From contig OZ242351.1 of the NCBI GenBank assembly GCA_965208675.1, positions 416,001 through 480,000 of the forward strand: a DNA stretch of 64,000 nucleotides, in the 5' to 3' direction. The translations under genes were made by a program, and so were the position numbers. The notes below the pieces were generated by a model. The model was not told the origin of the DNA, ran no database searches, and saw only the letters and a list, made by a program, of their open reading frames with translations. The stretch is from Candidatus Poribacteria bacterium (GTDB lineage: Bacteria > Poribacteria > WGA-4E > PCPOR2b). Of the stretch, positions 37,113 through 56,210 are shown piece after piece (the first letter of the stretch is position 1; each line of letters begins with the position of its first letter).

Positions 37113-39023
37113 TCAAAAATTATCCACGGCATATTTCAAAATTACGCCACGATCGCCAACGATCCAACCGTTTTCAGAATCAGTCATGGAAATTGAATTA
37201 AGATTATGTCGGGTTTCGCACCATTGCGGTCGCCAGTTTTCACCGCCGTCAATGGTGTGAAGGACGATTCCCTCGCCGCCTACAGCCCAACCCTCGTTAT
37301 GGGTGAGAAAGAAAACATCGTTTAGTGAAGCCTGGATGTAGGACTTTTGGCGTCCCCAAGACTTGCCGCCGTCTGTTGTGTGCAAAATCAACCCGCCGAC
37401 GCCGACTACCCACCCGGTTAACTGATTTGTGAAATGGACTCCTAGCAACCATATCTCACCGAGATTGGTTTGCAAAGACCATTTTGCCCCGCCATCTCCT
37501 GTATGGAGGATTGCCCCGCCTTGACCGACAATCCAGCCATTTTGCGAATCGGCGAAATGAACCCCAAATAGATGACGAGTGACACTGCTCTGTTGTCGTT
37601 CCCAACTCCTTCCGCCGTTTGTAGTATGCAAAATTTCTCCGCTTTCCCCAACAACCCAGCCCTTTTCATCATCAATAAAAAAGACACCCAAAAGGTCATT
37701 CGTCGATTCTGCCTCCTGCAGCGCCCATGTACTGCCGCCATCACTAGTGTGAATAATTGTTCCCCATTCCGCGACCGCCCATCCGAGCTGGTCGTTGATG
37801 AAATGGGTTGAACCAAAACATTCCATCGTCCGGCTGTCTTGCGGGTTCCAACTTCTACCCCCGTCTTTAGTGTAAAGCACTACCCCGCGATCGCCAACGC
37901 CATACCCGGTTTGGTCGGAGACAAAATGTACGTCCGCCAAGAAATAACTTTGCAATGCCTGAAGTGTCCATGTTTTGCCTCCATTCCCCGTGTGGAGGAT
38001 TGTACCAAATTCGCCGACCGCCCATCCAGTTTGATTATCCACGAAATGAATACCAAACAGGACGCTATCGCCTCCAATATGGGGTGTTGGCCCGCCTCTC
38101 TGATGATTCCATGTATTGCCTCCGTCGTCTGTATGCAAGATTGCGCCTAAATCTCCGGCAATCCAACCGCGCTGCGAATCAGTAAAGCAGAAGTCGTAAA
38201 GCGTGAAACTGTGTAAGGGTTCATCACCGGTTTTCAATCGTTGTCCGTAGGTGGTTTCGTGCCGCTTGTTTGAACCGTGTGTGAGATGCCTCCAAGTTTT
38301 CCCGCCATCCGTTGTTGCAAGTATTGTTCGTCTATCGCCGACAATCCATCCTCTACTGGGATCGGCAAAAAAAACGTCTGACAACCTGTAACGGACCCCC
38401 GTATCTTGGTAATGCCAAGTTTTTCCGCCATCGCTGGTACGGTATGTCAGACCTTCGTAGCTAACCGTCCACCCGTGCTGCGGATCAAGAAAATGAAGTC
38501 CCCGCAGGGAACTACCCCCAAGCCCCTGCGCGCGATTCTCCCAAGTGTCGCCGCCATTTTGAGTATACAGTGCGGTTCCAAAATCGCCGACCGCCCATCC
38601 CTCACGTGCAGAGAAAAAGTGGAGATCGAAGAGATTATTGAAAGTGTTTGACGCCTGTTTGTCCCATGTGCTTCCACCATCACTTGTGTGTAAAATCACG
38701 CCGTTGTCGCCGGCAATCCACCCTGACCGATGGTCCACAAACATGACCGATCTTAACGCATGCTGCGTTTCGCTGGCTTGCGGTTTCCAGGTTTCGCCGC
38801 CATCGACGGTGTACGCGATTACGCTATCAAATTCTTCTTCAATTGTATTGCCTTCGTTGTTGCCGACAGCCCATCCCGTTTTCTCATCAATAAAAAATAC
38901 ATCGTAAAACCGCGTTTCCCAATCCGCACGTCGAATTATTTTCCACCGCCCCGATTTCTGCTTTTGATTCCTCGTGCATCCAATCATTCCTAAAACGAGC
39001 GGCAGAATAATCAGAAAAATCAT
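37113..39023 (-). CDS. YCF48/BNR-repeat beta-propeller lipoprotein
   Basis: Many 'F.D…GWAVG..G.ILHT.DGG.TW' repeats; lipobox-like 'MIGC' after ATG 39023. Confidence 0.9.
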   Translation of the reverse strand: MIFLIILPLVLGMIGCTRNQKQKSGRWKIIRRADWETRFYDVFFIDEKTGWAVGNNEGNTIEEEFDSVIAYTVDGGETWKPQASETQHALRSVMFVDHRSGWIAGDNGVILHTSDGGSTWDKQASNTFNNLFDLHFFSAREGWAVGDFGTALYTQNGGDTWENRAQGLGGSSLRGLHFLDPQHGWTVSYEGLTYRTSDGGKTWHYQDTGVRYRLSDVFFADPSRGWIVGDRRTILATTDGGKTWRHLTHGSNKRHETTYGQRLKTGDEPLHSFTLYDFCFTDSQRGWIAGDLGAILHTDDGGNTWNHQRGGPTPHIGGDSVLFGIHFVDNQTGWAVGEFGTILHTGNGGKTWTLQALQSYFLADVHFVSDQTGYGVGDRGVVLYTKDGGRSWNPQDSRTMECFGSTHFINDQLGWAVAEWGTIIHTSDGGSTWALQEAESTNDLLGVFFIDDEKGWVVGESGEILHTTNGGRSWERQQSSVTRHLFGVHFADSQNGWIVGQGGAILHTGDGGAKWSLQTNLGEIWLLGVHFTNQLTGWVVGVGGLILHTTDGGKSWGRQKSYIQASLNDVFFLTHNEGWAVGGEGIVLHTIDGGENWRPQWCETRHNLNSISMTDSENGWIVGDRGVILKYAVDNF

Positions 39024-44328: not shown

Positions 44329-44356
44329 ATTATATCATAGACACCAATTTTGTCAA
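44329..44356 (-). promoter_or_regulatory. Consensus sigma70 promoter TTGACA-N16-TATAAT with extended -10 (TGn)
   Basis: Perfect hexamers on the minus strand, about 90 bp upstream of the 44238 start. Confidence 0.65.
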
Positions 44357-44528
44357 TTTTTTCTCCAGTAACGATTCTTTATCCAAAAGAGGACGTTGCT
44401 AGATGGAGACGTTAGCTATCGAAAATGACGGACGGCAACTGATTGGTTCATGGCAGCGACTATAGCAATTCTCTTTCAATTCGCTGGGTATTCCAGCCAT
44501 GCAATTTTTTCTCAGGTTCAAGGTCATA

Positions 44529-44558
44529 TTGACATTATTCTCAATTCAAGTGTATACT
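44529..44558 (+). promoter_or_regulatory. sigma70-type promoter TTGACA-N18-TATACT facing the defence island
   Basis: Near-consensus hexamers, divergent from the 44329-44356 promoter. Confidence 0.45.
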
Positions 44559-44654
44559 AAACAGCAATCAATTAGTGTGTGCGAGTCAATAACAACTATG
44601 GTTCGCCGATATTGTCTTTGGAAATTCTATTTGTACAGATCTGATCTAAAACTG

Positions 44655-44671
44655 ATAGGACTTACGCAGTT
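44655..44671. repeat. ATAGGACTTACGCAGTT dispersed repeat end
   Basis: Inverted copy at 56063-56079 (16/17); direct variant at 55895-55911; partial copies at 20679-20691 and 36207-36229. Confidence 0.7.
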
Positions 44672-44952
44672 GGGCAGACACAAGGGTTGCGCCTTGCTAC
44701 GCCTAATCCTAAAAGTCCGCGATTCAGACAAAAAATCCAAAATATGTGATATTTTGTGAGGTTTTGTGATTTCCGTTGAAGATCCATCAAATTTCAAAAC
44801 CCTTTAAACCCGCATAATAAGCGGATTTCAGCCCAATCTCGTGTGAACCGTTTCTCACGTCACAGACACCTCACAAAATGTGACATGATGTGATATTTTT
44901 GAGGTTTTTTTGATGTTCAACATAGAATCCGGCAGATTTCTATCCAATCAAA

Positions 44953-45031
44953 CTATAGCCATTGCCACTAAAAATTATACATTTAGTCATTGGTCTGTGG
45001 GAGAGGCTTCCTAGCCTCGATTATCAATCAG
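44953..45031 (+). repeat. Left 79-bp terminal inverted repeat
   Basis: 74/79 identical to the reverse complement of 55553-55631 (manual alignment); contains the hairpin GAGGCT-TCCT-AGCCTC. Confidence 0.92.
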
Positions 45032-45036
45032 TTTTC

Positions 45037-45296
45037 GTAGGTTGGGTTAAGCGGTGTTAACGAATAAATGTAGGTAATTCGCATGCGATTCGTGCTTTGA
45101 TTGCATTAGAAATTATGATTGATATAGCGTAACCCAACACTTTTTATGAATTGCGAAGTGTTTAGTTGACCGGAGGTGGTTGGGAATTCGAAAAACGTTG
45201 GGTTACGCTTCATCCATCAAATCCCGAAGGCGGTTAACCTGCCGAGCGATTCGTTATAATGAACATCATTCGTATAATCCGCTTAACCCAACCTAC
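45037..45296. repeat. GTAG-type REP doublet (REPIN/MITE-like), 260 bp
   Basis: Perfect 18-bp outer IR GTAGGTTGGGTTAAGCGG (45037-45054 / 45279-45296) and perfect 13-bp inner IR (45126-45138 / 45197-45209); a further half-copy at 55471. Confidence 0.8.
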
Positions 45297-45377
45297 AAAA
45301 GCTATTGGAAAATCCTCCGTCTTGCTAAAGGGGAGCTAGAAGGGGGTCAGGTACTTTTCACCTCGCAGAAGATAAAA

Positions 45378-48300
45378 ATGAACTTATCCAAAGACAAAAT
45401 CAAGAGCGCCCTACAGCACTTCACCAACGGCGATCTCGCCGACAACGCCCGCAATCTCCTCAACACCCTCGGCTACCGCAGCCAAAGGACGCTATCCCTC
45501 GAACCGAACACCGTCGACGGCTTTATTGTGCACTTCGATCCACATAATGCGATGAACCGGGAACGCGGGCTGTTGAGTGAGTGGGCGTCCATCGACTTCC
45601 TTTTTCAACTGACAGACGACGAAATCATACAGAGCGCTCAAGCTAAGTTGAACTTCGAAGGCAACGCTGTCGATCAGCACCGTTATGAATCTTACCTCCT
45701 TTTTGCCCTGAATCTCCAGAATCGCGGCTACACCCGCACCCAACTATCGGACATCGTCCGCGAAATCAACAAATTGCTCATGATACCCGCCATGGTCATC
45801 TTCCAGCACGGCGATGCCCTTACCTTCGCCGTAATCGACCGCCGGTTGCACAAGCGCGACGAGTCCAAAGATGTCCTCGAGAAAGTGACGCTCATCAAAG
45901 ACATCGTCTTCGCCGACCCCCACCGTGCCCACATCGACATCCTGTTCGACCTGTCGCTCAGTGAACTGCACCGCCAGCATGGTTTCACGGATTTCCCGGC
46001 GCTGCATGAAGCTTGGAAAAAGACTCTCGACACCGAGTTGCTCAACAAGCAGTTTTACCAAAGGTTGTACAATTGGTTTGGACGGGCGGTCAAGGAGTCG
46101 AAATTTCCCCTAAAAGAGAAGCGCTTATTGAAACCCGAACAGCATGTCATCCGCTTAATCACGCGCTTGCTTTTCGTCTGGTTTATTAAGGAGAAAAGAC
46201 TGATTGCGGACGAACTATTCGACGAAAGCGAAGTTGTTCCCTTGCTGAAGGACTACAACCGCAATACCGGCGATTCCTACTACCGTGCTGTGTTACAAAA
46301 CCTGTTTTTCGCCACGCTGAACACCGAAATAGCGAAGCGTGAGTTTAGCACGGAGAAAAACGCTACGCATCGCAACTTTTCGCGGTATCGTTACAAAAGC
46401 CAAATCAACAATCCCGATAAACTGCTGGAACTGTTCGCCCAAACGCCGTTCATCAACGGCGGGTTGTTCGACTGTTTGGACAGTGAGGAAGCCACAGAAG
46501 GCGGCGGCTACCGCATCGACTGTTTTTCGGATAGACACTACAAGCGTTTGAGTATTCCCAACCGTCTCTTCTTCGACGAGGACGACGGTCTGTTTCCCCT
46601 GCTGAAACACTACAAGTTCACCGTTGAGGAAAACACGCCGATTGAGCAAGAGGTCGCGCTGGACCCCGAACTTCTCGGCAAGGTGTTTGAGAACCTACTG
46701 GCGGCATACAATCCGGAAACCGGTGAGTCTGCCCGCAAACAGACCGGCTCTTACTACACCCCGCGCCCCATCGTGGATTACATGGTGGAGGAAGCATTAG
46801 TAGCCACGCTGGTGCAACAGGTAAACCCATCGGACGGAGATGTGAATTTGTGGGAGGAGCGCGTGCACTATCTGCTAGATTATGCGACAGCATTCGACGA
46901 TGCGAATGAATGGTTTGATGACGATGAGAAAGGCGAGCTTGTACGAGCAATTTCAGAACTCAAGATACTCGACCCCGCAGTCGGTTCCGGCGCGTTTCCG
47001 ATGGGTGTGCTGCACAAACTGACTCTCGCCCTCCGGCGGCTTGATCCGGATAACAGGCACTGGGAACTGTTGCAGCGGGAACGAGCAATACAACGGGCAG
47101 AAGTGGCATTTGATACGAAAGACGACAAGACACGGCGCGAGGAACTCGTCGAAATTGACGAAACCTTCAAACGGTATCGGGATTCGGATTTCGGACGGAA
47201 GTTGTACCTGATTCAGAACAGTATTTTCGGCGTAGACATTCAATCCATTGCTTGCCAAATCGCCAAACTCCGTTTCTTCATCTCCCTTGCCATCGAACAG
47301 ATGCCTGATAAAGATTCAGAGAATTTCGGCATCAAGCCGTTGCCGAATCTGGAGACGCGCTTTGTTGCCGCGAATGCGCTAATCGGTCTCAAAGGTGAAG
47401 GAACCCTTACAAGTCCCAAAGCGAAGGCTTTAGAACAAGCATTGGCAGAAAACCGCGAGCGGCATTTCCACGCAACGACACGTCCGCAAAAACTGGCGTG
47501 TAAACGCAAAGACATAAAGTTGCGGCGAGAATTAGCAGCGGATTTAAGGCATATCGGTATGCCTGACGATGATGCGGCACGAATCGTCCATTGGGACCCT
47601 TACGACCAGAGTGCAAGCACGGATTGGTTTGATTCGGAATGGATGTTTGGTGTCAAAGACGGTTTTGATGTCGTAATCGGTAATCCGCCTTATAAGCAAG
47701 TAAGAAAAGGCGCTCACTCCGATCAGCTGTTTCCGTATTTCGGAGGGCAAAGACAAAGGGAAGCAGAATCTCTACAAGCTTTTTGTGGAGCAGTCATACA
47801 ACCTTTGCGGACAGAGTGGCATCGCCACCTTAATCGTGCAAAGCAGCTTAATGTGTGATTTATCCTCTGCTGCCACCCGCGAATTGTTACTCACACGGAC
47901 TTGTTTGAACCATTGCCTTGAGTTTCCTAAAACCGCAAAGTCACCAGATACGCAAGTATTTACTTCTGTTTGGCAGGGGACTTGCATTTATCAGTTTGCC
48001 AAATCGGAACCTGATGGCAAGCCGGTTAACATCTCGGTAGGCAACGACACCCGCTCGATAGAGAATCCACGATTTGCTCCAATCACAAAGGATGAAATCT
48101 TAACGTTGTACCCGGATTTGAAATGTCTCCCACACATCAAAGAGGGTAGCATTTCCATACTAAAAAAACTAGCTGCTAGCAAAGCAATAAAACCACTGCA
48201 TGAATTTGTCTTAGGTATCAGACAAGGCGACATTAACCTTGCCACACACAAGCGTTATTTCTCTCCATCTCCTACAAAGGTGCGCCTCTTACGTGGGAGG

Positions 48301-48819
48301 CATGTGGCGCGTTACACGGTTCATTACAATGCGGCAACCGAATACCTTGAAGAAGGATTTATGTCCGAAATGGTTAGGGATAACCGAAATAAAGTTTTCT
48401 TGATTTCTCAGGAAGTCACTGGGACAGTTGACCCTCGCCGCTTGCATTTCGCGCTAGCAGAAAACCCACCGGTAGATATTCTATGGGGACACTCTACAAA
48501 CAAGACATTGTTGAAGAATCAAAAAGACAGTGCTGCATTGATGACATTGCTCAACTCCAAATTTATGGATTGGTATTTTCGCATCACTTCAACAAATAAT
48601 CATGTGCAGGGTTACGAATTGAAACAGCTTCCAATGCCGTTAATGTCTGATACACACCTTGAATACCTCAACAATCTAGCAATGCAAATCATGGAAGCCA
48701 AACGTACCGCATCAGACGCGGACGCAACCGCGCTTGAAAATGAAATTGATTGGGTGGTATACTCCTTATACAATCTTACGCCCGACGAAATCGCCATTGT
48801 GGAGGACACAACAGGGTAA
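45378..48819 (+). pseudogene. Type IIG/Eco57I-like N6-adenine DNA methyltransferase (RM fusion) split by a +1 frameshift at 47738-47740
   Basis: Motif I 'ILDPAVGSGAF' and motif IV 'VIGNPPY'. Removing one T from TATTTCG joins …LFPY to SEGKDKGKQNLYKLFVEQ and the TaqI_C-like TRD ('LLNSK…WYF', 'EIDWVVYSLYNLTPDEIAIVE'). Confidence 0.85.
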
Positions 48820-48916
48820 ATGGTCTGAATCGCAAATTAAGCGGGGCAGATTTGAGATGAACTATCGGACAATGAGGCCCACGTCACTGAAAATTGAAGG
48901 CAGGAGGCGAAAAATC

Positions 48917-51900
48917 ATGAATCCCAAAGAAACTTCTCTTATTTTAGCATTGGAAAATATTGATGCCGCGTCGTTACACGGTCTTTGTGATGATTTGGTT
49001 TTTGCCGGTGCACTTATACCAAATCTAAAGGGTAAGCTAATTCGTCCCAAGGGCTGGAATCCCGGAAAACACCATACAATCCCTTCGCCGGCAGATAGCC
49101 TTATTGAGTTGGACGACGGTGTGTGTGTTTTGGAATACAGCCGGCGGAAAGATTGGGATAATAAACTCAAAGATGATGTAGAATCTATCAAACAATGGGA
49201 GGAGCAGACGAGCCAAAAACTAGCTCGGTTTGTCTTCATCACGACGAGGGACATCGGAAACCGGAAGATTGGTAGGCGCGGTGAAGATAAACTCCCACCT
49301 GAAGAATATATCAGAAAAAAGTTTCCTCATTTAAATATTCGAGCGTATGTAATCGGTCAAAAAGACTTACTCGTTCCCCTGCAGAATAGCGATTATTTCT
49401 ATATACGGAGACGGCGGCTAAATATCCCCGAAGATTATTTCCTGTCGCTCGAATCTTTTAAATCATGTCACTTCAATCAAGCCCAAGACCGTCGCATATA
49501 TCTAAAATCCTACATTCAAGGAACTGGTCGTGCAGAGAGAATTAAGGCGCTTGAAAACTTTGTTAGTCAGACCGATGCAAGGGTACAACTGATTCACGCT
49601 CAGGGTGGCATGGGCAAAACACGGTTCGTGCTGGAATCCCTTAAACGGCTAGAGAAACAACATCCAAACATCGACATATTGTTTAACAAAAGACGAAAGT
49701 ATGTGAGCGTTGATGAAGTTATTCCCGAAATTTCGTCAGATCGGGAAAGTTTGATTGTGCTCGACGATGCGCACCTCATTGACAATCTGACGGATTTTTC
49801 AAACATTCTATCAGAGAGGGTGCACACGAAAATTATTCTCGTTACCCGCTCAACGGCAAGCGAGTCTGTCAAGCGGTCCATAGGGTACCCTATGGAAGAA
49901 ATAGAACTGACTCCGCTCGAACGGGACGCTTCAATTGAATTGCTAAAAGGTAATCTGGAAACACCGCTTCGAGACGAATACTTGAGATACGCCGCTGATA
50001 TATGTGACGGAAATCCACTTCTGATTGGAATCACCGCCCACCTAATCAACAAGGGGGAAATTCAATCGTTTGGCGACCTTAAGAAAAATGACTTAATTGG
50101 AGACTACCTTAAGAACATTCTCGCCGAGTTAAAACAACAAAATAGGTTAGATCGAACGATTTATGAACCGTATCTGGCTTTGCTGTACCTATTAAAGCCT
50201 TTCGCTACTAGTGATAATGAAACCAAATCTTTAATAAGATCTTTCCCTTTCTTGGAAATCAATAAACCTCAGGAAGGAGTTCTGCTCAGAGACCTTGAAC
50301 AGTGCGCAGTATTGGAGCGCCATGGAGACACGCTATGGTTGTACCCGGATCTATTGGGGGAGTATATGGTCGAAATGACCTTTTTCTCAGACATTTCGAT
50401 TCTAGATTTTGATGACATTTTTCCAGACATACCTTCATCGAATATGAAAAGTGTTTTCAAAACACTCCGCGATTTAGGCAATAGTAAAGCAGATTTGTTT
50501 CTCAAGCGTTGGTCTGATAATCTGGAAGATAAAGTCGGATCCCAGAATAATTTTGAGCTTTGCGAAAATCTTGACCTATTAGAAATTATTGTCCCAAATG
50601 TGGCAGATGAGGCGCTCCAGATAATTGATGTCTTGCTCAGACCAGAGAGCGAAAAGCCGCCTTCCACAAACGAAATACTAGGGTTGGCTACAACAACACG
50701 AAAGTATCGGGCTGTTCTGAGCCGGTGCCTGAGAATCTTGGAGAGCCATAGGCTCAGATACAATCATTTTGATGACACTTTAGAAATGGTTCTCAGAATC
50801 TATTTTTATAAGCCCGAAAGTGAAGAATATTCCGTGTTGCGAAAGGACGCTCTTGAAGCCATTGCTAAAACCGCCGCCTATAACTTGAACGTGGTGGAGG
50901 CTGGTTACGGGTATTCAATACAGACACGGATGTTTGAGAGGGTTCGGGCGTGGAAACAGGAAAATTTAGAGAAAAACTTCACACTTATCCTCCGTGTGTG
51001 TGGGACGCTATTGGGAACAGAGATAAAGAGTCAATACTCGGATTATGAAGGGATTGGCTGGACATCTGCGCCCGTACTTATCACGGACGAGTTAATCCGT
51101 TTGAGGCGAGATATTATTTCGCTGCTTCAGTCGATATTTGATGGAGTCCTAGACAGTCGCCAGCGGGTTGAAGTCCTTGACGTATTGAATTGCGCAATCT
51201 CCCCGTCAGTGATGCACTACAATGCGAAGATGAGCGTAATGATTCGAGACAACGCCAACACAATCATCAATTACTACCTCGATCTTATTAATCATACCTC
51301 ACCCCTGGAGGCACAAGTTCTTGAAAAAATGGAGCAACAAGCACATCACCTAAAGGTGTGGCACGAGGAAGATATCCAAGTCATGAACGTTGTCAATCAA
51401 TTGCTATCTGTACTCCAATCGCACGCGCCGTATCAACTGTTCAGAACTTTAGCCGTCGACGATTCGTTGTTTTCGCGAGATGACGGAAAAAATTACGAAC
51501 AGATTCAAACCGAGAAAGATCAGAGAATTAAGGAAATCGCAGATGGAATAACACATGAAAATCTCAGTGGGTGGTTAGAAGAGCTTAACAAAATCGCAAT
51601 TATTTTGTCGCAGAATTCCGACCAAGATTCTTCGTCTTTTTGCAAACTCTTGTTTGAAATCGGTAAAGACAATCCGCAGACCGCTCAAGCTCTCATTGAC
51701 AATAGTATCCGTGAAAACAATGCTTTGAAGGAGTTCGTTGCTGAATTCATAAGGGGCATTAGGGCATCAACAAGCCCAGATATTGCTAGCAGCTACGTCA
51801 GGCAGTGGCTATCGGGTGAAGATCGGATGTTAATCTTGGAAATTCCGGAAACTTATCGGACTGTAGATGAAAAGTTTTTAGACGCCAAAGATGTAGAAAT

Positions 51901-52846
51901 CTTTGCCCGCTTACTGAATTATAAGATGGGTGATAACGAACACGACCGAAGGCTAAGTATACGCATAATGTCTAATATCAGGTGGGTCTATACTAAGAAC
52001 CCAACGGAGGCAACCGAAATAATCTGTCAGGTCTTCAAGGAGATAGATCAAGACAGCATTTACCGCTGCGTACATGAATTGTGGTGGGCGAGAAATCAGA
52101 TTAACCTGAGCCAGTGGGATTTGACGGATCTCGAGGAGATTCTCAAAACGTTCGAAGATCTTCGTGCGCTGAATAATGATGCTATCTACATTTTGGCTCA
52201 ATATGGTCAAAAAGAACCCTTTGCATTAGTTAAGTTTTTTGAACGTCGTGTAGAGAAACAAACGGAGCATGGCAGTCTCTCGGATTATCGAGCCATTCCG
52301 TCTGGTCCTTATCTTAAGGCGTTTACTAAAGTGTACCAAGCCCATCCCCAGTATTCTGAAGCAATCAACCAAATATTGGAGTGGTTCCAAAAAGATGATT
52401 ATCGTTATGAACAGGCAGCGGCAGACCTGATTTCGGGTATCTCTCCTGAACTTGACGGTCCTCTCAAGGAAACTCTGTTGAACCTGATTAGAAGTGGAGA
52501 TGAGAAAAGTATACTTGCTGTTTTGAAAGTATTAGAAGAATTCCCCGAAGATTCAGCCACGCATGCGCTATACAAAGAGGCTGTAAGGCATTCCGAAGGG
52601 GAAAAAGAACTTCAGAACAAGATTCAGTCTTTGATTATGAGTCGAATCCGCGTACATATAGGAATTGGTGGATCGGTTATAACATTTCAAAAACTGAAGG
52701 AAAAATTTCGTTCATGGCTTGAAGATGACAACCGATGTGTCTGTGATTTTGCCCGAAGAGTCATCCGTCGTTTAGACGACCGTATTGATTTTGAGAAAAA
52801 GTGGACTACGGAAGAGGAGATTAAACGGAAAAAGGGACTACTGTAG
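48917..52846 (+). CDS. Avs-like antiviral STAND NTPase with an N-terminal PD-(D/E)xK-like domain and a long helical C-terminal region
   Basis: RBS AGGAGG before ATG 48917; N-terminus 'LCDDL…PADS…VLEYS…KLKDD'; Walker A 'QGGMGKT', Walker B 'LIVLDDAH', 'ILVTR', STAND GxP motif 'CDGNPLL'. Confidence 0.75.
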   Translation: MNPKETSLILALENIDAASLHGLCDDLVFAGALIPNLKGKLIRPKGWNPGKHHTIPSPADSLIELDDGVCVLEYSRRKDWDNKLKDDVESIKQWEEQTSQKLARFVFITTRDIGNRKIGRRGEDKLPPEEYIRKKFPHLNIRAYVIGQKDLLVPLQNSDYFYIRRRRLNIPEDYFLSLESFKSCHFNQAQDRRIYLKSYIQGTGRAERIKALENFVSQTDARVQLIHAQGGMGKTRFVLESLKRLEKQHPNIDILFNKRRKYVSVDEVIPEISSDRESLIVLDDAHLIDNLTDFSNILSERVHTKIILVTRSTASESVKRSIGYPMEEIELTPLERDASIELLKGNLETPLRDEYLRYAADICDGNPLLIGITAHLINKGEIQSFGDLKKNDLIGDYLKNILAELKQQNRLDRTIYEPYLALLYLLKPFATSDNETKSLIRSFPFLEINKPQEGVLLRDLEQCAVLERHGDTLWLYPDLLGEYMVEMTFFSDISILDFDDIFPDIPSSNMKSVFKTLRDLGNSKADLFLKRWSDNLEDKVGSQNNFELCENLDLLEIIVPNVADEALQIIDVLLRPESEKPPSTNEILGLATTTRKYRAVLSRCLRILESHRLRYNHFDDTLEMVLRIYFYKPESEEYSVLRKDALEAIAKTAAYNLNVVEAGYGYSIQTRMFERVRAWKQENLEKNFTLILRVCGTLLGTEIKSQYSDYEGIGWTSAPVLITDELIRLRRDIISLLQSIFDGVLDSRQRVEVLDVLNCAISPSVMHYNAKMSVMIRDNANTIINYYLDLINHTSPLEAQVLEKMEQQAHHLKVWHEEDIQVMNVVNQLLSVLQSHAPYQLFRTLAVDDSLFSRDDGKNYEQIQTEKDQRIKEIADGITHENLSGWLEELNKIAIILSQNSDQDSSSFCKLLFEIGKDNPQTAQALIDNSIRENNALKEFVAEFIRGIRASTSPDIASSYVRQWLSGEDRMLILEIPETYRTVDEKFLDAKDVEIFARLLNYKMGDNEHDRRLSIRIMSNIRWVYTKNPTEATEIICQVFKEIDQDSIYRCVHELWWARNQINLSQWDLTDLEEILKTFEDLRALNNDAIYILAQYGQKEPFALVKFFERRVEKQTEHGSLSDYRAIPSGPYLKAFTKVYQAHPQYSEAINQILEWFQKDDYRYEQAAADLISGISPELDGPLKETLLNLIRSGDEKSILAVLKVLEEFPEDSATHALYKEAVRHSEGEKELQNKIQSLIMSRIRVHIGIGGSVITFQKLKEKFRSWLEDDNRCVCDFARRVIRRLDDRIDFEKKWTTEEEIKRKKGLL

Positions 52847-52994
52847 GCCTTTCTCATTTCGGAGAAGCACGTACAGATTGAAAGGCTTTGCCGGTAAAAA
52901 CGACAAACCCGAATTGAATCACAGAACCACAGGACTTTCAGCGTTTAACTGCGTTAATCCTAAAAGAAACAGTGCTGTAATGAAAAAACTATGT

Positions 52995-53029
52995 CCGTTT
53001 TTGCGAAACGAACCCAAATCGAAACCAAT
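52995..53029 (+). repeat. CGAAACGAACCCAAATCGAA-containing direct repeat, copy 1
   Basis: 32/35 identical to 55732-55766; both copies are followed downstream by GTGATTCAGACAA. Confidence 0.75.
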
Positions 53030-53314
53030 CGCGCAAGCGGGTTAAAGAACACTCACCGTGCATCAAGAATAGACAGTGGACAATCCGTTTTTTTCGAAAC
53101 AAAGCCTATCGTAATGGTGTGCCGTTTTTTCAATTCGTTTTCTCCAAATAATTCGTGGAAATTTGTGATTCAGACAACTTCGAGATTTCAATCTTAGTTG
53201 CCTATCTGTCTTTTACAAAATCGGGATAGGGCGGTTCAGTTAAGAGATCGGTTCAGTAGGTTCGTGAGGGGTCTATCCAGTAAGATATGCTATGATTAAT
53301 TATGGAACTTCGAG

Positions 53315-54535
53315 ATGTTTGACAGTTTGACCGAACTGCGTGAAAAATTTTCCCTCGGAGAGGATTCAACTATTGAACTTAAAAGAGAGTTGCCTGAAAG
53401 ACAAAATCTTGCCGATGAGATAGTTGCTTTGACCAACACCCTCGGCGGTATCATACTGGTCGGCGTTGACAAGGATTGCATTATTTTTGGTATTGACCGT
53501 CAACATCTAGATCGAGATGAGCAAATCGTGGTTGATATATGTTGGGACATAATTGAGCCTAGAGCTCACATTGTTACAGAAAAGCTGAAGGTTGATTGTA
53601 GAAATCTGTTAAAAATAGATGTGTTACGTAGCCAATATGTTCACCGATCATCTAACGGTTATTTCATTCGCCACGGTAGCAGCAAAAGAAGGATGTCCAC
53701 CGAGGAATCGGTACGAGAATTTCAAAAAAATTTGCCGGGACGAATGATTCCTTTTGACGAACGGTCTGTGCCGAACACGCACAGAGACATATTGAGCAAT
53801 TCGATCTATAAACGATTTATTACAGAAGAAGCGACTAAGCGTGAGCAGATGGAAAACCTATTAATTAAAAGGCGTTTGCTAGTTAAGGAAAATGGCGAGT
53901 ACCATGCTTCGGTCGCCGGTGTATTGATGTGCTGTGAGAAACCCGATGATTATCTCGACAACAGTTTCATTCACGCGGCTTATTATGATGCATTGGAAAA
54001 AGATGTGAACTGCGAGATTGACATCGATGATTTCAGGGGACCGCTAGATCGACAGATTGTGGACGCCTTCAAATTTGTTGAAAAATACAACCATGTTTCG
54101 GCTCGTAAGGAGATTGGTAGAATAGACCGACCGCAATACAGTATGAGAGCCGTTTTTGAGGCAGTGGTTAATGCCGTCGTCCACAGAGATTATTCAAAAT
54201 ACAATTCGAAAATTCGTCTGTTCTTGTTCGCGGACCGGTTAGAACTCTATTCGCCCGGTACATTGGTAGATAGCTTGACTATGGACAATTTGCCCTATGA
54301 GCAAGCAACTCGTAACAAACTCTTGGCTGACTTACTTTCGGAAATTACTCTCGACGACGATATGAGAACGCAGGTAGTTCGGCGAGACTTTTTGGGAAAT
54401 CGCGGCGATGGCGTCGGTATCATTTTGATCGAAAGCGAGAAGCTTAGCGGTAAAGCGCCTTTATACGAGCTGTTGGGTGAAGAATTGCGCTTGACAATCT
54501 TCGCGGCAGAATCCTTACAAGAAGCGGAATCGTAG
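53315..54535 (+). CDS. Schlafen/AlbA_2 DNA-binding domain protein with an HATPase_c_4 (RecG C-terminal-like) domain
   Basis: 'GEDSTIELKR', 'GGIILVGVD', 'EAVVNAVVHRDYS…RLELYSPG', 'RNKLLA'. Confidence 0.85.
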   Translation: MFDSLTELREKFSLGEDSTIELKRELPERQNLADEIVALTNTLGGIILVGVDKDCIIFGIDRQHLDRDEQIVVDICWDIIEPRAHIVTEKLKVDCRNLLKIDVLRSQYVHRSSNGYFIRHGSSKRRMSTEESVREFQKNLPGRMIPFDERSVPNTHRDILSNSIYKRFITEEATKREQMENLLIKRRLLVKENGEYHASVAGVLMCCEKPDDYLDNSFIHAAYYDALEKDVNCEIDIDDFRGPLDRQIVDAFKFVEKYNHVSARKEIGRIDRPQYSMRAVFEAVVNAVVHRDYSKYNSKIRLFLFADRLELYSPGTLVDSLTMDNLPYEQATRNKLLADLLSEITLDDDMRTQVVRRDFLGNRGDGVGIILIESEKLSGKAPLYELLGEELRLTIFAAESLQEAES

Positions 54536-54646
54536 GCACGATCAGGAATAAATAAAATCTGTCAAATTTGGATTCTTGAGATTTATCTCCATTCTTATCT
54601 GGCTCCGTTGAAATGTCAACAGAACCTAAACATTTTGCCGAAAACT

Positions 54647-55417
54647 ATGGACTATTTCTACATCAACACCAACCAAAGCAATGCCCCCGACCAATTCCCC
54701 GTCTGGTTAGACAACAACATGGCATTCGTACATGGCGAAAAGTTGGGGAAACGACTCGATAACCTCTCACCCGGCGACATCTGTCTGATGTATATTAGCG
54801 AGCGAGGTGTGAAAGCAGTGGGCGAAGTGCTCAACAATCGGGATAAGACACCGTATCGCAAGCACATGATTCGCCGGAAGGAAAGACTCGATGCAAACGA
54901 ATATCGAATCGATGTCCGTTGGTATCTCGTACTCCCGGAACCAATTACACCCGAAGTGCTCAGAATCAGGTATGGGCTTGAACCCTGGATCGGCACTGTC
55001 AATCGCATCATAGAGAAAAAGCATAAAGCCGAAGAACTGATACGCCACCTGGAGGAAAAATACGCACGAATCCCACAGCAAGTTGACGAGAACGAAATCG
55101 CTGAATCACATCGCGAAGGCAACCTACGCCAAATCACCGTCAATGCGCATGAACGCAATCAAAAAGCCAGAGCAAAATGTATTGCGCATTACGGATACTG
55201 TTGTGCTGTGTGTGGTTTCAATTTTGAGGCAAAGTATGGCGAGGTGGGACAAGGCGTCATTGAAGTGCACCACATAACGCCCTTGTCTCAAATCAGCGGC
55301 GAATATGCAGTCGACCCGATCGAAGATTTGATACCCGTTTGTTCCAACTGTCACACTATTATACATAAACAAAAACCGCCATACGGCATTGAAGAAGTTA
55401 CAGCACTTTTGAAGTGA
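54647..55417 (+). CDS. HNH endonuclease (McrA-like) with an EVE/PUA-like N-terminal domain; candidate modification-dependent restriction enzyme
   Basis: 'EG…HERN..AR..CI.HYG..C.VCGF.F…IEVHH…L.PVCSNCH..IH'; N-terminal 'LSPGDICLMY…GVKAVGEV'. Confidence 0.85.
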   Translation: MDYFYINTNQSNAPDQFPVWLDNNMAFVHGEKLGKRLDNLSPGDICLMYISERGVKAVGEVLNNRDKTPYRKHMIRRKERLDANEYRIDVRWYLVLPEPITPEVLRIRYGLEPWIGTVNRIIEKKHKAEELIRHLEEKYARIPQQVDENEIAESHREGNLRQITVNAHERNQKARAKCIAHYGYCCAVCGFNFEAKYGEVGQGVIEVHHITPLSQISGEYAVDPIEDLIPVCSNCHTIIHKQKPPYGIEEVTALLK

Positions 55418-55552
55418 GCGACAGGTAAAACTCATGGCGTCATCGCGTTAGATAAGCTGGGACAGTTTTTGTAGGTTGGGTTTCGCTACGCCAAACAAAT
55501 CTTGAACGCAATTATAGTCATTTAGGTTCATATTTACACAAGGAGGAATCGG

Positions 55553-55631
55553 CTGATTGACAATCGAGGCTAGGAAGCCTCTCCCACAATCCAATGAGTA
55601 AATGTATAATTTTTAGTCGCAATGGCTATAG
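55553..55631 (-). repeat. Right 79-bp terminal inverted repeat
   Basis: Reverse complement of 44953-45031 with 5 mismatches. Confidence 0.92.
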
Positions 55632-55731
55632 AATGTGCGGAAGCTGATGTGAAAGCGGGAAGGCTAAAGCGTTTGGGGTGCTGTTAGACAGGACTTTTGA
55701 CGTACAGTTTACTGATGGCGACTGTAGCATC

Positions 55732-55766
55732 CCGATTTTACGAAACGAACCCAAATCGAAGCCAAT
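55732..55766 (+). repeat. CGAAACGAACCCAAATCGAA-containing direct repeat, copy 2
   Basis: Matches 52995-53029. Confidence 0.75.
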
Positions 55767-55894
55767 TGTGGCGAAGTGTTTTCAATCCGTTTCATCCTTA
55801 AATCTGCGGCAATCCGTGATTCAGACAAATGCACTCGCCGGCGATGGGCGGAAGAATTGTGCAAAATCTGTCAAATTTTGTAAACTTTTGTCAA

Positions 55895-56079
55895 ATAGGA
55901 GCTACGCAGTTGAACATCCATAGGTTCGTAGTAGGGATTAAGGAAGCGAATAGCGACCGCGATGGGAATCCACGTTATTGCCCATTTCTGCATAAAAAAT
56001 ATGTCAGGTCAAGGAAATGAACGGCCTGCCGGACGCGCAATAAATTGCGCTACTACAAACTGAACCGCGTAAGTCCTAT
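55895..56079. repeat. MITE-like element with ATAGGA(C/G)(T/C)TACGC ends enclosing a GTAG-type REP
   Basis: Left end ataggagctacgcagtt, right end aaccgcgtaagtcctat; internal gtagtag…gcgcaataaattgcgc-tactac. Confidence 0.6.
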
Positions 56080-56210
56080 TTAGATTAGCGGTGTAAACTG
56101 CTTGGTTTTACGCCTCGCCGAGATTCGTCACCTCTATCTTCCTCGGTCCTCATAGGCCAAAGCTAATCCGCTTCAATGAATAGTGGAAATTCCAGAAACT
56201 AGACAACTAT

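Follow-up and report, generated by a model that had tools for sequence, protein, structure and literature searches.

A 10.7-kb defence gene block in Candidatus Poribacteria is bracketed by two, probably independent, copies of a 114-bp IS630-family MITE

In a 64,000-nucleotide stretch of a Candidatus Poribacteria genome (contig OZ242351.1, positions 416,001 to 480,000; hereafter the window), a long inverted repeat brackets a 10.7-kb block of defence-type genes, and the question is whether this block is itself mobile or is a defence locus with small repeats inserted near its edges. The first-pass annotation of this DNA favoured the former, a non-autonomous vehicle for anti-phage genes mobilised in trans. 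We find that the mobile unit is a 114-bp IS630-family miniature inverted-repeat transposable element (MITE), not the 10.7-kb stretch, because empty sites in related genomes show a gain of 116-117 bp at a TA; the interior is a true variable defence hotspot of an ordinary kind, and two independent insertions of the MITE near the edges of this repeat-rich hotspot probably account for the pair. Below, G000 denotes the genome containing the window; the relatives compared with it are G001, G002 (sister species), G003, and G005.

The repeat pair was confirmed: the segments 44953-45031 and 55553-55631 are inverted copies identical at 74 of 79 positions, and the outer termini of both read C-TA-TAGCCATTGC, as the first-pass annotation had stated. 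Its reading of these 79 bp as the terminal repeats of a 10.7-kb element, on the other hand, has to be given up. Whole-genome BLAST extended the right repeat by about 40 bp further inward to a second TA, where it completes a 114-bp element flanked by TA at both ends, while the left repeat comprises only bases 1-76 of that MITE, followed directly by a doublet of the GTAGGTTGGGT type, which we take to be REP-like (repetitive extragenic palindromic) by sequence form only; the other end (end B) is absent there. The repeat is thus one end of a MITE that is whole on the right and truncated on the left, and a long terminal inverted repeat was rejected, the similarity stopping only where the left copy is cut. 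The same junction between MITE and REP-like doublet is found at two further places in G000. We located the MITE ends with weight matrices for end A and end B (counting cut-off at least 22 bits; the reversed genome, used as a control at a lower cut of 18 bits, gave 0 A and 2 B matches). The A ends at 44954 (+) and 55630 (-) score 50.9 and 52.8 bits, and are intact and inward-facing. The left and right copies are identical at 71 of 76 positions, ranking third among 153 pairs, and have no derived changes from the consensus in common; the former lies about 350 bp upstream of the first defence gene and the latter about 100 bp past the last. Near the left edge, G002 retains a longer A end (34 bits) where the window has only a 12-bp relic of a third end (Table 1).

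The MITE is non-coding and has terminal inverted repeats, both ends starting with TAGYCATT, in the form TA/TAGYCATT ... RCTA/TA. The 87 ends counted in G000 make up 26 complete A-B units, 12 lone A ends, and 23 lone B ends; the complete units are dispersed in both orientations and include one IS630 element itself and several units with other interiors. The 114-bp form is present in 4 of the 41 genomes, all from one genus. Comparison of 30 MITE loci of G001-G003 with G000 gave 11 loci without pairable flanks, 11 with the copy shared, four unclear cases, and four clean empty sites (four of the 19 pairable loci), which were shorter by 116, 116, 116, and 117 bp and carried a single TA in three cases and GA in one. 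The shared ends and the empty sites bear out the expectation of IS630-type ends with duplication of a TA, and the expected short MITE versions exist as the 114-bp units; a preference for CTAG targets does not extend to this family, given that CTAG surrounds only one of the 20 complete copies that retain both flanking TAs. The first-pass annotation also suggested looking for a transposase copy with the same ends, and one was found at G000:4524977-4525868: this 0.9-kb IS630 has ends of 45.4 and 41.7 bits and domains HTH_Tnp_IS630 (E 2e-32) and DDE_3 (E 1.2e-23; the sole DDE_3 match in G000), but its reading frames are disrupted upstream of the DDE region and the gene is split over several frames. 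Among 31 IS630 loci (the best locus of each of 30 genomes plus a second G000 copy), both ends occur only at G000's own locus (L065) and one end each at L078 and L086; none of the 31 holds an intact transposase element with MITE ends. The repeat is therefore an IS630-family MITE, genus-specific and newly found, although of a known kind; our literature search, with most subscription papers lying outside it, found no paper that deals with the 114-bp MITE or with Poribacteria defence cassettes bounded by MITEs.

The ends of this family also occur around other sequences. For example, a 1.5-kb MITE at G000:C1:1190488-1192021 holds four tandem REP-like doublets of about 346 bp, the largest non-coding cargo between true A and B ends, and the units at G000:C1:728103-728253, 2318994-2319119, and 4719009-4719133 combine MITE ends with another interior, a CCCCCCTAGCCCCCC-type hairpin. 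Several unrelated small repeats are thus carried between ends of this family.

The first-pass annotation proposed that removal of the block regenerates a CTAG empty site, which would join the left and right outer flanks. Read in frame, the right outer flank corresponds to the 3′ end of a small gene, an intact homologue of which lies before a ParE toxin gene; the small gene has no significant Pfam match and, from its position before ParE, is presumably antitoxin-like. All five MITE-free homologues of the right flank that we examined (two in G002, one in G000, and two in G005) have antitoxin-like codons before the TA. In a MITE-free paralogue in G002, 111 bp separate the counterparts of the inner flank on the right (39/40, with a terminal TA) and of the outer flank (81/90, with an initial TA), and in G001 the inner flank runs on through a REP-like doublet that is not cut. 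The right MITE therefore lies between sequences that were already adjacent; the antitoxin-like gene is joined in the paralogue to the inner flank, not to the left flank. We also considered whether the left flank supplies the 5′ portion that the antitoxin-like gene lacks, and rejected this, since it fitted no better than 3000 random TA sites (P 0.15-0.34, for three homologues), and a BLAST search of G000 (word size 7, which tolerates the one base missing from the query) gave no match spanning a left-flank/right-flank junction. A single CTAG target site regenerated for the block is thus not supported by the sequences compared. No precise empty allele was seen in the relatives or among the joints inspected in contigs of four runs, and the outgroups, a small sampling, lack the whole 11.6-kb island in which the block lies rather than the TA-to-TA segment.

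This island, defined by the last left and first right base in common with G001, extends beyond the repeat pair by about 500 bp on the left and about 450 bp on the right. It is replaced in G001 by 156 unrelated bases, which join both flanking operons, and in G003 by 151, with G001's arrangement kept beside the right operon. G002 has both MITE copies at the orthologous places and a different cargo between them: a type IIG restriction-methylase gene, ThsB and ThsA (Thoeris, Macro type), an HNH gene, and IS4- and ISL3-type insertions, so that the G000 allele has genes for a STAND (signal transduction ATPase with numerous domains) protein and an AlbA_2 protein where the G002 allele has ThsB and ThsA. 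The type IIG genes of the two alleles are 87.7% identical over 45321-47693, up to the NPPY motif, and differ in the C-terminal region. Related type IIG loci (L059 at 1.81 Mb in G000, L062 in G003, and L063 in G001) lack MITE ends altogether, and the one in G001 carries a type IIG, ThsB, and ThsA layout like that of the G002 allele; because such loci exist, one of them with the same ThsB and ThsA, the cargo appears to be exchanged independently of the MITE.

Two further observations concern these gene families. ThsB (TIR) and ThsA (Macro) genes lie directly behind a type IIG gene at unrelated loci, namely L014:8133-12850 (G002) and L063:5227-6671 (G001). In several relatives, with matches in G005, G006, G019, and G021, between three and six related type IIG genes occur per genome, and the matches all end at the NPPY position, a shared stop pointing to frequent exchange of target-recognition regions.

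How often would such a pair arise by chance? We placed the genome's own 61 units at random in 5000 shuffles, with a uniform placement that ignores clustering in intergenic hotspots, and obtained at least one facing A-A pair 2-12 kb apart in 53% of them (P=0.53). In repeat-rich Poribacteria genomes, chance alone should yield about one long TA-flanked inverted repeat per genome, which may bracket housekeeping genes just as well. G000 has two other facing A-A pairs: one of 11.8 kb encloses folA, thyA, dut, and chlorite dismutase, and one of 5.8 kb encloses DUF4007, a HATPase_c_2 protein, and an oxidoreductase. At L061:2063-7570 (G000, 1.70 Mb), a DUF4007 gene and a gene for a 1181-aa ATPase-like protein have a small HTH-like open reading frame (ORF) and a MITE copy between them, an arrangement that resembles a defence-type operon.

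The events that we consider probable can be outlined as follows. A small IS630 element whose ends match those of the 114-bp MITE would have supplied the transposase that excised the MITE and inserted it at TA sites; the shared ends and the TA duplication at empty sites are observed, and we infer the action of that transposase on the MITE, since the sole copy found is frameshifted. The right copy would have landed in a REP-like doublet beside the antitoxin-like stub. There it has replaced the 111 bp between two TAs that the G002 paralogue retains, possibly by way of an adjacent deletion or of recombination between two copies. The left copy would have lost its B end at the REP-like doublet. Both copies would predate the divergence of G000 and G002. 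Since then the defence genes would have been exchanged in situ, not by transposition of the whole block, most likely via homologous recombination, with conserved stretches of the type IIG gene and the REP-like and X repeats as its sites (X being a short GATTCAGAC-type repeat; Table 1).

We weighed this outline against the possibility that the block is a composite transposon, i.e., that its two A ends and an IS630 transposase acting in trans moved all of it before the G000/G002 split, and that the interior was remodelled later. The two outer ends would suit such an element, being intact and inward-facing with a TA outside and lying at the same places in G002 around a different cargo, and G000 does contain a transposase copy with the same ends. 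In addition, the ISY100 transposase can mobilise a mini-transposon that retains just 30 bp of each end (PMC2170065), and a review describes MITE-flanked integrons in Acinetobacter as mobile by inference (PMC5039589). Against these points stand the right inner and outer flanks, which were adjacent before the MITE arrived, the left flank, which does not continue the gene of the right flank, the missing match for an empty junction in G000, and an island wider than the ends on both sides. Nor did we see a joint skipping the 10.7-kb element among those inspected in contigs of four runs (87 further joints lie outside those inspected), or a second copy of the bounded block among the matches listed for the 41 genomes, apart from the orthologous site in G002 (176 weaker matches are not in that list). 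We therefore regard a composite transposon as very unlikely, and the block as a vehicle mobilised in trans is not supported: its flanks rebuild no single target, and neither an empty allele nor a second block was seen among the genomes and joints compared. The repeat has instead turned out to be a multi-copy element that also occurs alone, much as the first-pass annotation had envisaged for the case that its proposal was wrong, although a cognate transposase does exist.

Several observations count against two independent neutral insertions, most of all the conservation of the copies. Between G000 and G002 the right copy is identical at 114 of 114 positions and the left copy at 75 of 76 (189/190 together), which such insertions do not predict; the flanks of the two copies are 83-93% identical, and eight other shared copies (the G002 ones among the 11 shared loci, with a clear copy in both genomes) total 742/802 (92.5%). 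Both copies belong to the youngest-looking subfamily. Facing pairs are also more frequent than under the uniform null described above, which ignores hotspot clustering (three A-A pairs versus a mean of 0.76, P=0.043; nine facing pairs of any kind versus 3.8, P=0.02), so the MITE copies cluster somewhat, and the left insertion site cannot be reconstructed, since the left outer flank (44901-44955) has no MITE-free homologue in five genomes. Gene conversion, between the copies or toward the consensus, was rejected, because the private changes of each copy persist in both species. Selection might explain the identity, if the copies arrived separately and were then retained for a role at the two ends of the operon, such as ending transcripts, stabilising RNA as hairpins, or anchoring recombination; that the changes private to each copy are conserved as well, and that the copies sit just before the first and just after the last defence gene, would fit. 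Yet promoter and terminator scans found no site within either copy (with totals no higher than in shuffles), the MITE folds as DNA no better than shuffles (z -1.2), related type IIG operons lack the MITE, and three of the eight comparison copies are 96-98% conserved too (112/114, 77/79, and 72/75), so that chance could still have produced the 189/190 identity. We regard retention by selection as unlikely. Quite unlikely, too, is a functional pair kept at the locus edges, which would let a passing IS630 transposase lift the 10.7-kb block or would anchor swaps such as that of STAND and AlbA_2 for Thoeris; if true, the pair would delimit an exchangeable, MITE-bounded defence cassette. Two independent insertions remain the reading that we adopt.

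Table 1. Features of the variable island and its edges (positions in the window).
Positions	Strand	Feature	Remark
44453..56082	.	Variable island, 11.6 kb	Between the last left and first right base common with G001
44453..44464	-	Near-erased third end of the 114-bp MITE family	12-bp relic
44718..44728	+	X repeat	GATTCAGAC-type
44954..44955	.	TA outside the left MITE copy	
44956..45031	+	Left copy, A end of the 114-bp IS630-family MITE	Cut short
45037..45296	.	REP-like doublet	GTAGGTTGGGT and inverted copy
45378..47858	+	Type IIG restriction-methylase, N-terminal part	Eco57I, N6_Mtase; PADLOC REase_MTase_IIG E 7e-48; out of frame after NPPY
47785..48819	+	Type IIG C-terminal part	TaqI_C target-recognition region; other frame
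48824..48834	-	X repeat, inverted	Just past the type IIG stop codon
48917..52846	+	STAND NTPase protein, 1309 aa	Weak nSTAND_NTPase5, below the Pfam cut-off
53164..53174	+	X repeat	Behind the STAND gene
53315..54535	+	SLFN_AlbA_2 and HATPase_c_4 protein	71% paralogue at G000:3513630-3514842
54647..55417	+	HNH endonuclease	G002 homologue 89% identical; a type IV restriction model matched weakly
55471..55514	+	REP-like doublet cut at its TA (55513-55514)	Uninterrupted in G001 and G002
55515..55628	-	Right copy, complete 114-bp MITE (B end 55515, A end 55628)	Internal GTGGGAGAGGC hairpin motif
55629..55718	+	TA and 3′ stub of the antitoxin-like gene	
55815..55825	+	X repeat	Outside the right MITE copy

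The interior holds five ORFs, all on the plus strand, none of which matches a transposase or integrase family in Pfam. The first-pass annotation, which listed four co-oriented defence genes without a transposase, was thus right about orientation and content but not about the number, the type IIG gene being split. We classified the genes by single-protein PADLOC scans and Pfam, and their defence role follows from domains only. The domain set of the type IIG gene is complete (nuclease-methylase, N6 motifs, and target-recognition region), but is not in one intact reading frame. A contig from run X10 spans 47334-55591 without differences, the frameshift included, while a contig from run X1 has one base fewer at 47738 (frameshift region 47735-47745) and reads the gene in frame. 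The frameshift is therefore not merely an assembly slip, provided that X10 is independent of the assembly, which is uncertain, as this run is possibly the source sample. The orthologue in G002 is split at another position; inactive alleles may be common. The STAND protein has a 63% identical relative in G005, and its nearest Atlas clusters carry Mrr_cat and nSTAND3/5 (Mrr_cat in 33-50% of cluster members); it has no PADLOC or NCBIfam match at the cut-off, curated Avs models included.

Other repeats are frequent at this locus. The X repeat is present in 30 of the 41 genomes and is concentrated, in G000, at type IIG, AlbA_2, and toxin-antitoxin loci. The STAND gene, absent from the G002 allele, lies between two inverted X repeats (48824-48834 and 53164-53174; 15 of 16 positions matching), and may be a unit that is gained or lost. 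Two REP-like motifs were counted in 270 and 52 copies; the former, GTAGGTTGGGT, has 270 copies in G000 versus 7 in a reversed control. Two near-perfect, divergent sigma-70 promoter matches lie at 44329-44356 (-, 12/12), left of the island edge, and at 44529-44558 (+, 11/12), inside the island; the latter could drive the defence genes. Elsewhere in the window, the region 37143-38908 contains at least eight direct repeats (period about 123 bp, 60-75% alike), which probably belong to a minus-strand gene for a repeat protein.

The runs that contain parts of the window are labelled as sponge metagenomes. By exact matching, which is a weak test, the left flank and the right inner flank had no match in metagenome contigs and the MITE end had none in viral contigs, while a scan of genome contigs with the right flank returned one record, L064 (Ca. 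Poribacteria).

On our reading the locus is of little consequence: Poribacteria gain a single genus-specific IS630 MITE and a further variable type IIG defence locus. If the conservation of the two copies is functional, tiny non-autonomous elements would serve as boundaries for the exchange of anti-phage genes, a role so far described, in the literature consulted, for resistance integrons.

Several features of the locus have counterparts in known systems. Defence hotspots headed by a type IIG gene have swapped target-recognition domains and variable downstream genes, and the locus described here is likewise conserved up to NPPY, with a differing C-terminal region and different downstream defence genes; unlike such hotspots in general, its type IIG allele is frameshifted and it is packed with Poribacteria-specific repeats. 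REPs and REPINs are short palindromes starting with GTAG or GTGG, which form inverted doublets and reach hundreds of copies; the doublets in the window resemble them in palindrome form and copy number, a likeness of sequence form alone. Among transposable elements, ISY100 (ISTcSa) belongs with the small IS630/Tc1/mariner elements and their MITEs, which insert at and duplicate TA and have short imperfect terminal repeats (PMC2170065), as does the family described here. The IS630 in G000, an element of about 0.9 kb with HTH and DDE domains, is similar to ISY100 in size and domains when compared with that description (PMC2170065); unlike the single 282-aa transposase ORF reported for ISY100 (PMC2170065), its gene is split over several frames, and its 114-bp derivative has a REP-like hairpin inside and is found in only one genus among the 41 genomes. 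A parallel to the arrangement as a whole is provided by the class 1 integrons of Acinetobacter (Domingues et al., as cited in a review), where two copies of one MITE likewise surround accessory genes with no transposase inside (PMC5039589). There the two MITEs are reported to be identical, and target duplications on either side of the block are the basis for inferring movement (PMC5039589), whereas the copies described here differ at 5 of 76 positions, one of them is truncated, and their flanks rebuild no single target.

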